64,000 bases of DNA from Ignavibacteriales bacterium (GTDB lineage Bacteria; Bacteroidota; Ignavibacteria; Ignavibacteriales; DAOSCP01), in the NCBI GenBank assembly GCA_035379625.1, contig DAOSVM010000003.1, forward strand, positions 334-64,333. Reading direction: 5' to 3'. The notes beneath the pieces are model-generated. The model saw only the letters and a program-made list of their open reading frames with translations. It was not told the DNA's origin and did no database searches. This document shows positions 13,259 to 49,600 of the stretch, piece by piece. The translations under genes were made by a program, and so were the position numbers. Position 1 is the first letter of the stretch. Every line of letters starts with the position of its first letter.

Positions 13259-13384
13259 AAAATTAATTTTGTTATTGTAACTATTTTTCAGGACAAAAAC
13301 AATATTAAATAGACTTTATAATATAATTTTTTTTCATTTATTTTTTTTGTAATTTTATATTACTACTATATCTTTAGGGGGCTT

Positions 13385-23132: not shown

Positions 23133-23546
23133 ATGAAAAAACAAATAAATATCAAGGGTAAAAATATGCAAGTCGAACATTTAACAAAACAAACGTTTCT
23201 TGAAAAAGTTTTCGATTACGAAAACAATAAAGAATGGAAATATCAAGGTAAAGTACCAGCAATTATTGATTTCTGGGCTGAATGGTGTGGTCCATGTAGA
23301 ATGGTAGGTCCAGTTTTGGAAGAATTACAAAAAGAATATGGTGACAAGATTCAAGTTTACAAAGTTAACACAGAAGAAGAACAAGAATTAGCAGCTGTAT
23401 TTGGGATTAGGAGTATTCCATCATTATTATTCGTTCCTGTAGACGACAGGCCACAAATGGCTGTAGGAGCATTACCAAAAGAGACATTTTATGAAATTAT
23501 CAACGATGTTTTAAAAGTTCCAAGACCAATTATAGTAACACCATAA
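23133..23546 (+). CDS. trxA: Thioredoxin
   Basis: WCGPC active site in a thioredoxin fold. The start could be the internal ATG at 23166. Confidence 0.9.
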   Translation: MKKQINIKGKNMQVEHLTKQTFLEKVFDYENNKEWKYQGKVPAIIDFWAEWCGPCRMVGPVLEELQKEYGDKIQVYKVNTEEEQELAAVFGIRSIPSLLFVPVDDRPQMAVGALPKETFYEIINDVLKVPRPIIVTP

Positions 23547-23554
23547 TTTTGAAG

Positions 23555-23582
23555 GCTCTCTTAAAAGGAGAGCTTTTTTTTT
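23555..23582 (+). terminator. Rho-independent terminator of trxA
   Basis: GCTCTC/GAGAGC stem, an A-rich loop and then T9. Confidence 0.8.
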
Positions 23583-23588
23583 ATTTAT

Positions 23589-24124
23589 TAGCTCAGACGG
23601 TGTAAGCTTAAAGCTCGTGCGCACGAAGGCGCACGGGCAGGCTAACGCCAAAAATATGGTAGATTAATTAAAGCATATCTTACATAATATCAACGACATA
23701 CAACATTTATGCATCTACCTAAATAACTATTTATTAAAAATTTTCCAAAGTAATACCAAACTTTAATAATATTAAAATATTTTCGGGATTACAATATAAT
23801 TGTATTTTCGATATATTCACTTGTTCTAAAAATATATTTGTATTTGCAATATAATTGTATATATGATATATCGGCAATTATCAATAATATATTTGTAAAT
23901 ACAATATAATTGTTTTACGATATAATAGAAAATGCAATTATATTACAAAAATAATTGTATCAATTTTAAGCTGCCACGCATTTAAGAAAAATTAGAATAT
24001 TAAGGCCTCAAAGCACCGCTATTTGTAAGGTGTCTAAGAGAAGAGTTTTGCGGGCCGTTCCGGCCCGCTGCCCCTTGCGGCATGACGAATGCCGCAAGGG
24101 GCTAAGCTTATACTGTCTGAGCTA
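23589..24124. repeat. Copy A of a composite intergenic element (22-nt terminal inverted repeats, three GC-rich hairpins, 55-bp phased AT repeats); MITE/BIME/inverton-like, unclassified
   Basis: Terminal inverted repeats are TAGCTCAGACGGTGTAAGCTTA (23589-23610) and the reverse complement of 24103-24124. Hairpins lie at 23613-23638, 24050-24068 and 24070-24102. A second copy is at 48787-49525. There is no credible ORF. Confidence 0.85.
23791..23913. repeat. Three 55-bp-phased repeats, each carrying the palindrome (A/G)CAAT-ATA-ATTGT
   Basis: The palindrome starts at 23791, 23846 and 23901, exactly 55 bp apart. TATATTTG (TAnnTTTG-like) lies at 23833-23840 and 23888-23895, also 55 bp apart. Confidence 0.8.
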
Positions 24125-24143
24125 TATATTTTATTTAATTTTT

Positions 24144-24182
24144 AAAATAAAAAAAGGCAAGCTCGCTTTTTGCTCGCCTGCC
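24144..24182 (-). terminator. Rho-independent terminator of sdhB
   Basis: On the minus strand the stem is GGCAGGC/GCUUGCC (one G-U pair), followed by a U-rich run, about 30 nt after the sdhB stop. Confidence 0.65.
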
Positions 24183-24210
24183 TTAATGATGTACTTTAAT
24201 TACTTCCTAA

Positions 24211-24984
24211 TTATAACTCAACATTATTTGAGCTAAGTTTAGCTTTAATGTATTCACGATTTAATCTAGCAATATGTGAAACTGGAATTCCTTTTGGACA
24301 TTCGGCTTCACAGGCATAAGTATTTGAGCAGTAACCAAAGCCTTCAGCATCCATAGTTTTAACCATCTTTTCAACTCTTTCTTTTCTTTCAACTTGACCT
24401 TGTGGTAAAAGAGCTAATTGGGAAACTTTGGCACTTACAAAAAGCATAGCCGAAGCATTAGGACATGTAGCAACGCATGCACCACAACCAATACAAGCTG
24501 CTGCTTCAAAAGCTTCCAAAGCTGTATCTTTATGAATTGGAATATTATTAGCATCACGTGCAGAGCCAGTATTCACAGAAACATAACCACCAGCTTGCAT
24601 AATTCTATCAAAAGCGGAACGATCAACTACCAAATCTTTGATAATTGGGAATGGTTTAGCTCTCCATGGCTCAATAACAATAGTATCGCCATCATTGAAA
24701 TGTCTCATATGTAACTGGCATGTTGTAATACCTTGTAAAGGACCATGAGCTCTACCATTGATAAACATACCACAGCTACCACAAATACCTTCACGGCAAT
24801 CGTGCTCGAAGGCAATAGGATCTTCACCATTTTTTTGTAACTGTTCGTTAAGAACATCTAACATTTCAAGAAAAGAAGCATCTGTTGAAATGCCAGTTAC
24901 TTTATATTCTTTAAATTCGCCTTTTTTGCTATTTCTTGGCTGACGCCATATCTTTAGTGTTAATGATAATTTCTTGCTAGCCAT
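24211..24984 (-). CDS. sdhB: Succinate dehydrogenase/fumarate reductase iron-sulfur subunit
   Basis: 2Fe-2S ([10 protein letters not shown]), 4Fe-4S ([12 protein letters not shown]) and 3Fe-4S ([12 protein letters not shown]) cysteine clusters. Confidence 0.95.
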
Positions 24985-45530: not shown

Positions 45531-47156
45531 ATGGAAAATTACACAACCTTTGTTGATAAAGCTTATGATAGTTATTCAAAAAAAGACTTTCATAAAGCTA
45601 TAGAACTAATCAACGAAGCTGAAAAACTTTTACCTAAAGATGCATCTATTACTGAAGGTGCTAGCATCTACAATTTCCGTGGTTTCTGTTATTTATCGTT
45701 AAATGAAATTGAAAAAGCAAAAGCTGAGTTCGAAGAAGCTTTAAACCTAAATCCCACCTCTCCACAAGCTTGTGTCGGTTTAGGTGAAGTTTTTTATTTA
45801 AATCGTAATGATGTTGAAGCAAAAAGAATGTATGAATACGCTTTAAATTACGATCCACAAAATCCACTAGCTCTTGCTGGTCTTAAAAAAGTTAATGCTG
45901 AATTAGGCCTTAATCCAGAAGATAATTCCTTGATAGATAATAAAAATCAAGATTTAATTGATAGCTTAGTTGAAGAAGCATATCAATTATTTAATAAACG
46001 TAAATTTGAAGAAGCACTAATTAAACTTGCTGAAGTTGAAAAATTATATAAAGTCAGAACTGCAGAGGTTGAAAACTTCAAAGGTATTATTTATTTAGCA
46101 TTAAATGACAAAAATAAAGCAAAATTGTCTTTTGAAGTTGCTCTTCAATTAAATCCTAAATCTTCCCAAGCTTGCGCTGGCTTAGGTGAAATTTTCTACT
46201 TAGAAAACAAAGATGAAGAAGCTAAAAAAATGTTCGAATGGGCTGTCTTCCATAATCCTCAAAATCCTATGGCTGTAAATGGATTAGCAAAAGTAAATAA
46301 AGCCCTTGGCAAACCTATTTATGATAACTCTCTTCAAGGTGATGAAATAAAGAAAAAATTAAACTTTGAAGTATTATTCGCTGATGCATATCAGGCTTTC
46401 CAAGATAAAAACTTCAATACTGCATTAGAAAGAATTGAAGAGTTTGAAAAAGCCGTTCGTGTTGCTGCATTAAATTTCAAAGGTTTTAATTATTTAGCAT
46501 TAAATGATATTGAAAGCGCTAAAAAATGTTTTGAAGAAGCTCTCGAACTAGATGAGACATCCTCTCAAGCTTGTGCTGGCTTAGGTGAAATTTTCTACTT
46601 ACAAAAAGATGATGTATCTGCAAAAAAAATGTATGAATTTGCAGTAGCATATAACCCGGAAAATAAATTTGCCATTGAAGGTTTAGCTAAAGTAAACAAA
46701 AGCTTAAATTTACCCAAGGAACATAACAATTTAATAGTTGAAGATATTTTAAGCGATGAAAAATTAGCTGCTATGATTACTCAAGCATATGAAGCTTTCG
46801 ATAAGAAAGATTACAAAGAAGCCTTACAAATTTTAAATGATTTTGAAAATAAAGCAATTGATTTATCAGTATCTGCTGATGTAAGTATTAAAAATTTTAA
46901 AGGCTATATATATTTAGGTTTAGGTGAAACAGAAAAAGCAAAAGAACAATTTGAAAGTGCTTTGGAACTTGACCCTGAATCTTCCCAAGCTTGTGCTGGT
47001 TTAGGAGAATGTCTGTATATTGCTGGTGACGACCAAGCAGCTAAAAAAATGTTTGAGTGGAGCATAAAACATAACCCTGGTAATGAAGTTGCTTACGCTG
47101 GTTTGCATAAGGTAAATAAAAATTTAGGATTGCCTATAAACCATAAAAGTTTCTAA
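45531..47156 (+). CDS. TPR-repeat protein built from four tandem modules of about 135 aa
   Basis: The block SSQACAGLGE(I/V)FYL...AKKM(F/Y)E(W/F)A...NP.N...GL.KVNK.LGLP recurs four times. Repetition is also visible at the DNA level around 45770, 46165, 46565 and 46985. Confidence 0.8.
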   Translation: MENYTTFVDKAYDSYSKKDFHKAIELINEAEKLLPKDASITEGASIYNFRGFCYLSLNEIEKAKAEFEEALNLNPTSPQACVGLGEVFYLNRNDVEAKRMYEYALNYDPQNPLALAGLKKVNAELGLNPEDNSLIDNKNQDLIDSLVEEAYQLFNKRKFEEALIKLAEVEKLYKVRTAEVENFKGIIYLALNDKNKAKLSFEVALQLNPKSSQACAGLGEIFYLENKDEEAKKMFEWAVFHNPQNPMAVNGLAKVNKALGKPIYDNSLQGDEIKKKLNFEVLFADAYQAFQDKNFNTALERIEEFEKAVRVAALNFKGFNYLALNDIESAKKCFEEALELDETSSQACAGLGEIFYLQKDDVSAKKMYEFAVAYNPENKFAIEGLAKVNKSLNLPKEHNNLIVEDILSDEKLAAMITQAYEAFDKKDYKEALQILNDFENKAIDLSVSADVSIKNFKGYIYLGLGETEKAKEQFESALELDPESSQACAGLGECLYIAGDDQAAKKMFEWSIKHNPGNEVAYAGLHKVNKNLGLPINHKSF

Positions 47157-48786: not shown

Positions 48787-49525
48787 TAGCTCAGACAGTA
48801 TAAGCTTAAGCCCCTTGCAGCTTGAAGAAAGCCGCAAGGGGCAGCGGGCCGGAACGGCCCGCTAAAATGATAAACCCTAACATAAGCAACACCTCAGATA
48901 CTCAGAAAGTTAAACCTAATATGTTATCGACTAAATAAAAATACAATTTTAAGATTACACAAATTCCAAAATTATTACTACAAAAAAGCAAACTCAAATT
49001 TACCATCTTCATAAACGTGCTTACCACTCCCCCGGGCAAAAAAATTGCTTCCGAAATGATAAAAATTATTTTTTTATTTTTATTTGCTGCTAAATTGTTA
49101 TTTCTGCTCTTTTTATAATTTTATTGTAATTAGAATTGTATCGTAAATACAATATCTTTGCCAATAATATATCGTATATACAATAATATAGTAAGAGCAA
49201 ATATATTTTTTGAAATTGCAATTATATCGTATATACAATAATATCGTGGATACAAATATTTTTTAAAGAACTACCAATATATCGTATTCGCAATTATTTT
49301 GTATGGCCTATTATATTGCAATAACGATATTTATTTACTCCCTTTTTACGTAAGCTAATTTTTCATAGAAAAATATTAAAACAACATTTAGTTATTTATT
49401 TAAATGTAAAAATATAAAACATATTGTTCAAATCTATTGAAAGGTCTTGGTGAAAATATTTTTGGGCGTCAGCCCGCCCGTGCGCCGCTCGGCGCACGGG
49501 CTTTATGCTTACACCGTCTGAGCTA
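48787..49525. repeat. Copy B of the composite intergenic element, interior inverted relative to copy A
   Basis: Terminal inverted repeats are TAGCTCAGACAGTATAAGCTTA (48787-48808) and the reverse complement of 49504-49525. Hairpins lie at 48810-48842, 48844-48862 and 49476-49501. The module order is the mirror image of copy A. Confidence 0.85.
49139..49296. repeat. Phased repeats with core TATCGTATATACAATA (three copies at exact 55-bp spacing plus one out of phase)
   Basis: ATCGTA(T/A)A... cores start at 49171, 49226 and 49281, 55 bp apart. A further one-mismatch copy starts at 49140. Confidence 0.8.
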
Positions 49526-49542: not shown

Positions 49543-49579
49543 AAAAATAAAAAAAGCAAGCTCGCTTACGCTCGCCTGC
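49543..49579 (-). terminator. Rho-independent terminator of the RND pump gene
   Basis: On the minus strand the stem is GCAGGC/GCUUGC (one G-U pair), followed by a U-rich run. By hand alignment it matches the sdhB terminator module at about 41 of 47 positions. Confidence 0.6.
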
Positions 49580-49600
49580 TTTTCAATTAACACTTACATT

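Follow-up and report, generated by a model that had tools for sequence, protein, structure and literature searches.

The stretch of 64,000 nucleotides analysed here, from an Ignavibacteriales bacterium (contig DAOSVM010000003.1, assembly GCA_035379625.1; hereafter the window), contains two copies, A and B, of a small gene-less element whose centre is occupied by a phased array of short palindromic sites with a period of 55 bp. The arrays are part of a family resembling miniature inverted-repeat transposable elements (MITEs) that has expanded in one lineage, as follows from the number of its terminal inverted repeats (TIRs) across genomes and from an empty orthologous site in a sister genome. 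We tentatively favour the view, held with slightly less than even confidence, that the array is a platform of multiple protein-binding sites serving the element's own propagation. Comparisons were made between the window's own genome (G000; 2.62 Mb, 28% G+C, 78 contigs) and a sister genome from the same genus (G001); the nearest relative of G000 in the public genome set is an Ignavibacteriales metagenome-assembled genome.

The array and the elements that carry it

The features of the two copies are as follows, in window coordinates:

23774-23938, + strand: array of copy A, three 55-bp units (23774-23828, 23829-23883, 23884-23938) of 17+17+21 bp each, from Tandem Repeats Finder and a unit-by-unit alignment of 27 copies
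23792, 23809, 23830, 23847, 23885, 23902, 23918, + strand: 11-mers CRATATAWTWG of copy A
23833-23840, + strand: TATATTTG box of unit 2, within the 11-mer AAATATATTTG; second box at 23888-23895
23846-23858, + strand: palindrome GCAAT-ATA-ATTGT of unit 2; others start at 23791 and 23901
23854-23867, + strand: dyad ATTGTA-TA-TATGAT, one mismatch from ATYGTAWWTACRAT; others at 23799 and 23892
49164-49318, - strand: array of copy B, nine 11-mers in an exact 17-17-21 lattice, starting at 49308, 49291, 49274, 49253, 49236, 49219, 49198, 49181 and 49164
23590-24123, + strand: copy A, a non-coding element of 534 bp with TIRs (AGCTCAGACGGTGTAAGC at 23590-23607, its complement at 24106-24123) and hairpin ends
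23608-23650, + strand: left subterminal GC-rich hairpin module of copy A, stem CCGTGCGC...GCGCACGG, an 86% match to copy B as an inverted repeat
24048-24105, + strand: two right subterminal GC-rich hairpins of copy A, GCGGGCCGTTCCGGCCCGC and GCCCCTTGCGGC...GCCGCAAGGGGC, an inverted-repeat pair with 48809-48866
48788-49524, - strand: copy B, 737 bp, from a subfamily whose interior is longer on the side between array and double-hairpin end; aligned to copy A, TIRs confirmed

A preliminary description of this DNA had placed the palindrome (A/G)CAAT-ATA-ATTGT at 23791, 23846 and 23901 and TATATTTG at 23833 and 23888 of copy A, and the equivalent cores (ATCGTAT...) at 49171, 49226 and 49281 of copy B. 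All of these positions are correct, and the 55-bp period that it reported is recovered by Tandem Repeats Finder in both copies (copy A: 23790-23924, 2.5 copies, score 159; copy B: 49166-49287, 2.2 copies, score 149, together with arrays of period 17). The unit, with the consensus AAAATATATT(T/C)GTAWWTAC(A/G)ATATAATTG(T/C)ATWTACGATATAWT, has a finer substructure: it consists of sub-repeats of 17, 17 and 21 bp, each formed by an 11-mer CRATATAWTWG and a TAWWTA linker. With one mismatch allowed, this 11-mer occurs 321 times in 57 oriented elements, compared to 9 times in shuffled sequences, and the distances between pairs of 11-mers peak at 17 (137 pairs), 38 (78), 55 (95), 34 (45) and 21 (27).

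Since the sub-repeats abut, they generate two overlapping dyads, ATYGTA-WW-TACRAT and RCAAT-ATA-ATTGY. The palindrome of the preliminary description arises at a junction, from the right arm of one 17-bp sub-repeat and the left arm of the following one. TATATTTG belongs to the first 17-bp sub-repeat, whose arm ATATTYGTA it represents (11-mer AAATATATTYG). The 22-nt core of the preliminary description is the dyad ATAT-YGTA-WW-TACR-ATAT; written out, a single dyad reads ATATTGTATATACGATAT.

The array takes a central position, about 185 bp from each element end. Searching the genome with a profile of the unit yielded 261 units, 202 of them inside paired TIR elements, where their number ranges from none to four, with exactly three in 41 of 93 elements and four in 8. 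Neighbouring units are spaced by 53-57 bp in 78 of about 120 cases, most often by 55 bp (31 cases). All 27 aligned full-length copies have three units in the same register, each with its own signature, and both the orientation of the module and these unit-specific signatures are constant across subfamilies with different flanking interiors.

The TIR is an 18-nt sequence with a nearly invariant logo at both ends of the 93 paired elements. Its pattern has 250 matches in G000 (125+125), corresponding to about 125 elements, 8 in G001 and none in 39 other genomes of the order. The true count for the sister species may be lower than 8, since two small MITE-bearing contigs of G001, C33 and C31 (L033, L031), are 99.6% and 91.7% identical to contigs C47 and C53 of G000. 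The remainder of the two genomes is about 74-78% identical, and the near-identity of these contigs suggests cross-binning or recent transfer. Pairing of the TIRs gave 93 short elements with lengths of 159-1034 bp, together 1.9% of the genome; full-length elements of the copy A type number 27 and are 66-88% identical to copy A.

At the site of copy A, the orthologous intergenic region of G001, between thioredoxin and sdhB, measures about 33 bp and is free of the element. Only one open reading frame (ORF) of at least 50 aa touches copy A (68 aa, 24030-24236), and it crosses the end hairpins and leaves the element. The family thus combines TIRs, small size, absence of genes, many dispersed copies and an empty orthologous site, as is characteristic of MITEs. 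As to a target-site duplication, the two junctions share no more than a TA dinucleotide (48 of 93 elements), and the empty site in G001 has diverged too far to show whether there is one. The elements are preferentially located between convergent genes, that is with gene 3' ends on both sides (35 of 64, against a background of 11%), and show no bias in orientation.

Constraint on the array and distribution of its motif

To describe the constraint on the array, we compared per-site diversity and insertion columns among the 27 aligned full-length copies. Diversity is lowest in the TIRs (0.05-0.12), followed by the subterminal hairpins (0.17) and the boxes of the array (0.18), and is higher in the array spacers (0.34), the left interior (0.39) and the right interior (0.33). 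The array contains only 8 insertion columns, whereas the flanking interiors contain 38 and 102. The divergence of spacers around a retained core, which had been noted between copies A and B, therefore holds throughout the family. Also supported is the suggestion that retained number, phase and core mark an array of predicted protein-binding sites, of the iteron or operator type: all three are kept in the 27 copies and across subfamilies, while the spacers drift.

The age of the substitutions is informative as to where this constraint acts. Private substitutions, which are singletons and presumably arose after insertion, are nearly as frequent in the boxes as elsewhere (0.43 and 0.52 per site, ratio 0.83, p=0.30). 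In contrast, shared and therefore older variants reach in the boxes only about half the frequency that they have elsewhere (ratio 0.54, p=2e-7). As shared variants are depleted and private ones are not, the constraint appears to act on the lineages that make new copies; we infer that inserted copies decay freely, while the lineages giving rise to new copies keep their boxes. This contrast is what a cis-acting function at the level of the element would predict, and not what would be expected of some 100 promoters or operators useful to the host.

The motif is almost confined to the elements. The dyad ATYGTAWWTACRAT occurs 73 times in G000, compared to a single occurrence of a reversed control; element zones account for 62 of these dyads, coding sequence for 5 and the remaining intergenic DNA for 6 (0.10 expected). 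In the sister species, which has few elements, dyad and control are found 3 times each. Of the palindrome TACAATATAATTGTA, with one mismatch allowed, the genome has 48 copies, 46 in or next to elements and 2 elsewhere (3.2 expected), and the palindrome RCAATATAATTGY occurs 27 times in elements and not at all in other intergenic DNA (0.07 expected).

A second subfamily, which we call GCCAC, has the same TIRs and an interior of many GTGGCA/TGCCAC palindromes without the 55-bp array (examples, outside the window, are G000 C10:37695-38078, C11:63547-63917 and C18:40054-40313). Yet 15 of the 19 listed elements of this subfamily keep one or two copies of the dyad, flanked by GGTGGCA/TGCCACC, inside a 38-bp palindrome GGTGGCAATTATATCGTATATACAATATAATTGCCACC. 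The dyad is the only part of the array that they retain, and they have no -7 box, so that the common denominator of the subfamilies is the dyad and not the TAnnTTTG box.

A metagenome scan with a two-unit array pattern returned 48 loci, of which 12 carry arrays, all within TIR elements. Eleven of the twelve are 99.96-100% identical to G000 over their full length and the twelfth is 99.2% identical over part of it; the other 36 loci have no TIR and, apart from one stray, no match to the unit profile. As the arrays occur only on contigs of the same organism, the scan provides no independent lineage for comparison. Viral contigs gave no match to the array pattern and three single matches to the TIR pattern, which is below our estimate for random sequence.

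Possible functions of the array

Besides the strict lattice, the constraint on the boxes, the depletion of shared variants and the retention of the module across subfamilies, two observations speak for a platform at the level of the element: the restriction of the motif to the element, and the absence of a tie to host genes, as seen in the preference for convergent neighbours and the lack of orientation bias. On this reading, the roughly 6-9 sites of an array would be bound by a sequence-specific, probably dimeric protein that assembles cooperatively, and the resulting complex might, for example, recruit or position a mobilising or accessory protein. The array would then act like the repeated transposase-binding sites or internal enhancers of larger transposons, rather than as promoter or operator for neighbouring host genes.

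Several points weigh against this reading. The preliminary description had stated that copies of the element without the array would count against binding sites; most paired elements do have units, but 15 of 93 have none, and neither have the TIR pairs that enclose genes, so that the array is not strictly required for every TIR-bounded unit. Dimers that bind cooperatively along one face of the helix would not usually be spaced by 17 bp, which corresponds to 1.6 helical turns. The sorting into private and shared variants only approximates a phylogeny, with singletons taken for terminal branches; misalignment of the indel-rich interiors may inflate the shared variants there, and alignment quality in them could explain part of the lower diversity of the boxes. 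Finally, neither a binding protein nor a transposase was identified in the genome.

The search for a mobilising enzyme covered several routes. No ORF is repeated in the genome at an identity of at least 70%, transposases of the IS630 type (PF13358) and the IS200 type (PF01797) are absent from it, and it has no Y1/HUH transposase gene. The sole match to PF01609/PF13701, an IS1380-like remnant that is truncated and lacks a matching second TIR, was rejected as a candidate autonomous partner. This remnant (G000 C8:17281-17953; profile positions 16-233 of 435 of PF13701, one internal stop) is the only relative of DDE_Tnp_1 in the genome and adjoins a solo element end, comprising TIR and double hairpin, at C8:16960. 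The genes between long TIR pairs include hsdS, a restriction-modification pair, a helicase fragment and housekeeping genes; transposases and arrays are absent from these pairs.

Among the long pairs, some with TIRs 2.0-2.4 kb apart surround defence-type genes (G000 C39:10953-13317 and C2:108701-110670; G001 C3:175787-177197, locus L042). Judged by their translations, one ORF resembles an N6-methyltransferase and has a possible restriction partner, and another resembles an hsdS specificity subunit. The first ~850 bp of L042, with the left TIR and the start of the hsdS-like gene, are 97% identical to G000, compared to about 74% for the neighbouring genes.

Of the alternatives to a binding platform, the one that survives best, although we regard it as unlikely, is that the array is a passenger: in an ancestral master copy, two successive triplications, of a 17-bp motif and then of the 55-bp block, would have produced an array that was inherited without function, its apparent conservation reflecting shared ancestry and AT-rich low complexity. 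The lack of a significant depletion of private substitutions in the boxes is consistent with this, as are the elements and gene-enclosing TIR pairs without an array and the failure to find a binder. Ancestry, however, does not readily explain that shared variants are only half as frequent in the boxes as in the adjacent AT-rich interior of the same copies, nor that the lattice and the unit number (three in 41 of 93 elements) survive an overall divergence of 15-34% and many nearby indels. Further, the same dyad persists alone in a subfamily whose interior is unrelated.

A structural role of the DNA itself appears rather improbable to us. Here, the chain of AT-rich palindromes would act through its shape or melting and without a sequence-specific protein, be it as an easily unwound or cruciform-prone region aiding the extrusion of the GC-rich subterminal palindromes, as hairpins in a single-stranded intermediate, or as a bend. 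The family is indeed built around hairpins at both ends, of which the right pair (24048-24105) folds strongly as single-stranded RNA (z = -6.3), and in the GCCAC subfamily the dyad is clamped by its flanks into the 38-bp palindrome. The array, as single-stranded DNA, also folds somewhat better than shuffled sequences, but this effect is weak (z = -2.3) and 5 of 200 shuffles fold equally well. Moreover, melting or bending requires neither conserved C, R and G residues at fixed positions nor a strict 17/17/21 register, and the genome lacks a Y1/HUH transposase gene.

The preliminary description had raised, as a speculation, that the units could be repeated promoter/operator modules. Each unit would then have a -7 box TAnnTTTG with an overlapping operator palindrome, and the element would have three regulated promoters in tandem. 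The genome does provide a context for such a proposal: TAnnTTTG has a sense-oriented peak at -40 to -31 of ORF starts (79 sites against a baseline of about 25, with 36 in antisense), these promoter-zone sites have a T-rich -33 signal about 19 nt further upstream, and TATAAT has no sense-specific peak. The peak and the upstream T-rich element suggest that this lineage of Ignavibacteriales uses promoters of the Bacteroidota type. TATATTTG is located 5-6 nt upstream of the palindrome in two units of copy A, and BrickBuilt, a MITE of another member of the Bacteroidota, has promoter activity (PMC4596501).

Nevertheless, the array boxes differ from the promoter-zone sites in several respects, and we consider tandem promoters improbable. 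The claim that TAnnTTTG boxes occur in both copies stands for units 2 and 3 of copy A, but extends to only one of the three units of copy B. Over the whole family, the box ends in TTTG in 40 of 74 units and in TTCG in 31, a wobble that it shares with the R position of TACRAT. A TTTG 17-23 bp upstream accompanies 1% of the array boxes; the share is 21% for promoter-zone sites and 6% for controls far upstream. The array boxes are preceded by an A-rich flank, the promoter-zone sites by a T-rich one. In 49 of 64 cases the array faces the 3' end of a convergent gene, and the segment downstream of it is poorly conserved (right interior, see above). An Rfam search over 23400-24300 at a permissive E-value gave matches at chance level only, and the GCCAC subfamily retains the dyad without any -7 box. 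A small RNA driven by the array was considered as well and rejected: the downstream interior is rich in indels, and inspection of the 27-copy alignment by eye, without a formal covariation test, revealed no consistent compensatory changes. More generally, TAnnTTTG inside repeats of AT-rich genomes of the Bacteroidota lineage calls for checks of flank and orientation before a promoter is assigned.

A bolder reading, in our estimation a long shot, treats the chassis of TIRs and hairpins as a vehicle for interchangeable cassettes of recognition sites. There would be two such cassettes, the AT-type array of 17-bp dyads and a GC-type array of GTGGCA/TGCCAC palindromes, and the vehicle would have placed about 100 arrays (about 600 sites) of one lineage-specific DNA-binding protein behind gene ends. 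This protein might be a mobilising enzyme of a new kind, recognising both the internal dyads and hairpin ends defined by their structure; the arrays could also be a genome-wide sink or scaffold, with isolated dyads, such as those at thrA described below, as newly seeded regulatory sites.

As for the host, no regulator was found connected to the array, in an analysis that did not extend to a test of the two MarR proteins which the preliminary description mentions for this window. Outside the elements, two dyads at C6:13328 (ATAGTATATACAAT) and C6:13350 (ATCGTATATACGAT; span of both 13328-13365) are 22 bp apart and about 125 bp upstream of thrA. They are not retained in G001, and more distant Ignavibacteriales have a threonine-rich leader peptide and an attenuator hairpin at this position. 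At least one isolated site, at C5:88690, resembles a fossil array. Given the lack of enrichment in G001, the unkept thrA dyads and the fossil-like site, an ancestral host regulon is not supported, and the isolated dyads are specific to the genome that had the burst. We therefore rejected a host regulon as the main explanation of the dyad, which is enriched in the intergenic DNA of G000 but not in the sister, and equally a regulon for the palindrome, whose two sites outside elements do not exceed expectation and are both in coding sequence. That the element captured and amplified a host operator, with arrays as decoys or as seeds of new regulatory sites, could account for the six dyads in non-element intergenic DNA and for the pair upstream of thrA, but is very improbable in view of the same findings in the sister species, the fossil-like site and the undepleted private substitutions in inserted copies.

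Regarding the surroundings of the two copies, copy A is located next to genes for a thioredoxin and an EVE-domain protein (both from Pfam) and sdhB (from reading of the translation), and copy B next to those for an amino-acid permease and an RND pump (Pfam). Just beyond the right-hand TIR (+ strand) of both copies there are terminator-like sequences, 24150-24185 (AAAAAAAGGCAAGCTCGCTTTTTGCTCGCCTGCC) and 49553-49590 (AAAAAAGCAAGCTCGCTTACGCTCGCCTGC). They are closely alike and stand behind downstream minus-strand genes, despite the opposite orientation of the elements. Elsewhere in the window, at 45671-47120, a 229-nt segment occurs four times with 65-72% identity and a spacing of about 400 bp. 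These diverged copies lie within a 541-aa ORF (45531-47156) and thus imply an internally repeated protein.

Comparison with known elements

We found no description of MITEs in Ignavibacteria in the literature searched. Among described elements, BrickBuilt of Porphyromonas gingivalis (Klein et al. 2015, PMC4596501) comes closest. Its minisatellite of 23 nt is free of spacers and present in 1 to 22.8 copies, a genome has about 19 such elements, and their promoter activity has been measured. Like the family described here, BrickBuilt belongs to the Bacteroidota lineage, is restricted to a species, intergenic and gene-less, and has inverted-repeat ends and 'leader' and 'tail' flanks around an internal tandem repeat. 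In contrast, the Ignavibacteriales family has a fixed architecture of three 55-bp units (17+17+21) with unit-specific signatures, palindromic cores and spacers, reaches about 125 elements per genome and has GC-rich subterminal hairpins, and we found no evidence of promoter function.

Correia elements (CREE/NEMIS) of Neisseria are also close. They are high-copy MITEs with TIRs and TA junctions, located in intergenic DNA near genes, and measure 100-155 bp, with one internal IHF site and promoter boxes at their ends. The TA junctions, present here in about half of the elements, and an internal protein site, here predicted, are shared features. The Ignavibacteriales elements differ by their length of about 530 bp and by 6-9 repeated palindromic sites in their centre, among which no site of the IHF type was recognised.

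Phased short repeats that assemble many copies of one protein, some of them with inverted-repeat cores, are known from plasmid iterons and from centromere arrays such as sopC and parC. Unlike these, the present arrays have no rep or par gene and no plasmid context, occur in about 100 dispersed chromosomal copies and were not matched on viral contigs. DnaA boxes were not noted at the array, where no systematic scan for them was made.

MITEs tend to be viewed as relics of insertion sequences without a structure of their own, whereas this family has a strictly phased, hierarchical palindromic array, whose pattern of conservation points to selection on propagating copies in a genome without a known transposase. 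If a protein reading the 17-bp dyads were found, it would most likely be the enzyme, or a cofactor, that moves the whole family, and the identity of the mobilising enzyme would explain the burst that left 250 TIR matches in G000. Spaced repeated motifs read by an element-encoded protein are well known from larger transposons, as in the ends of Mu and its internal activation sequence with operators, the TnsB sites of Tn7 and the 12-bp TnpA motifs of En/Spm. In those cases, either the arrays are subterminal or the element itself encodes the binder, whereas the Ignavibacteriales array is central and has no known element-encoded protein. We therefore regard these repeated transposase-binding sites and internal enhancers as the best mechanistic analogy for the array, and not as a group to which it would belong.

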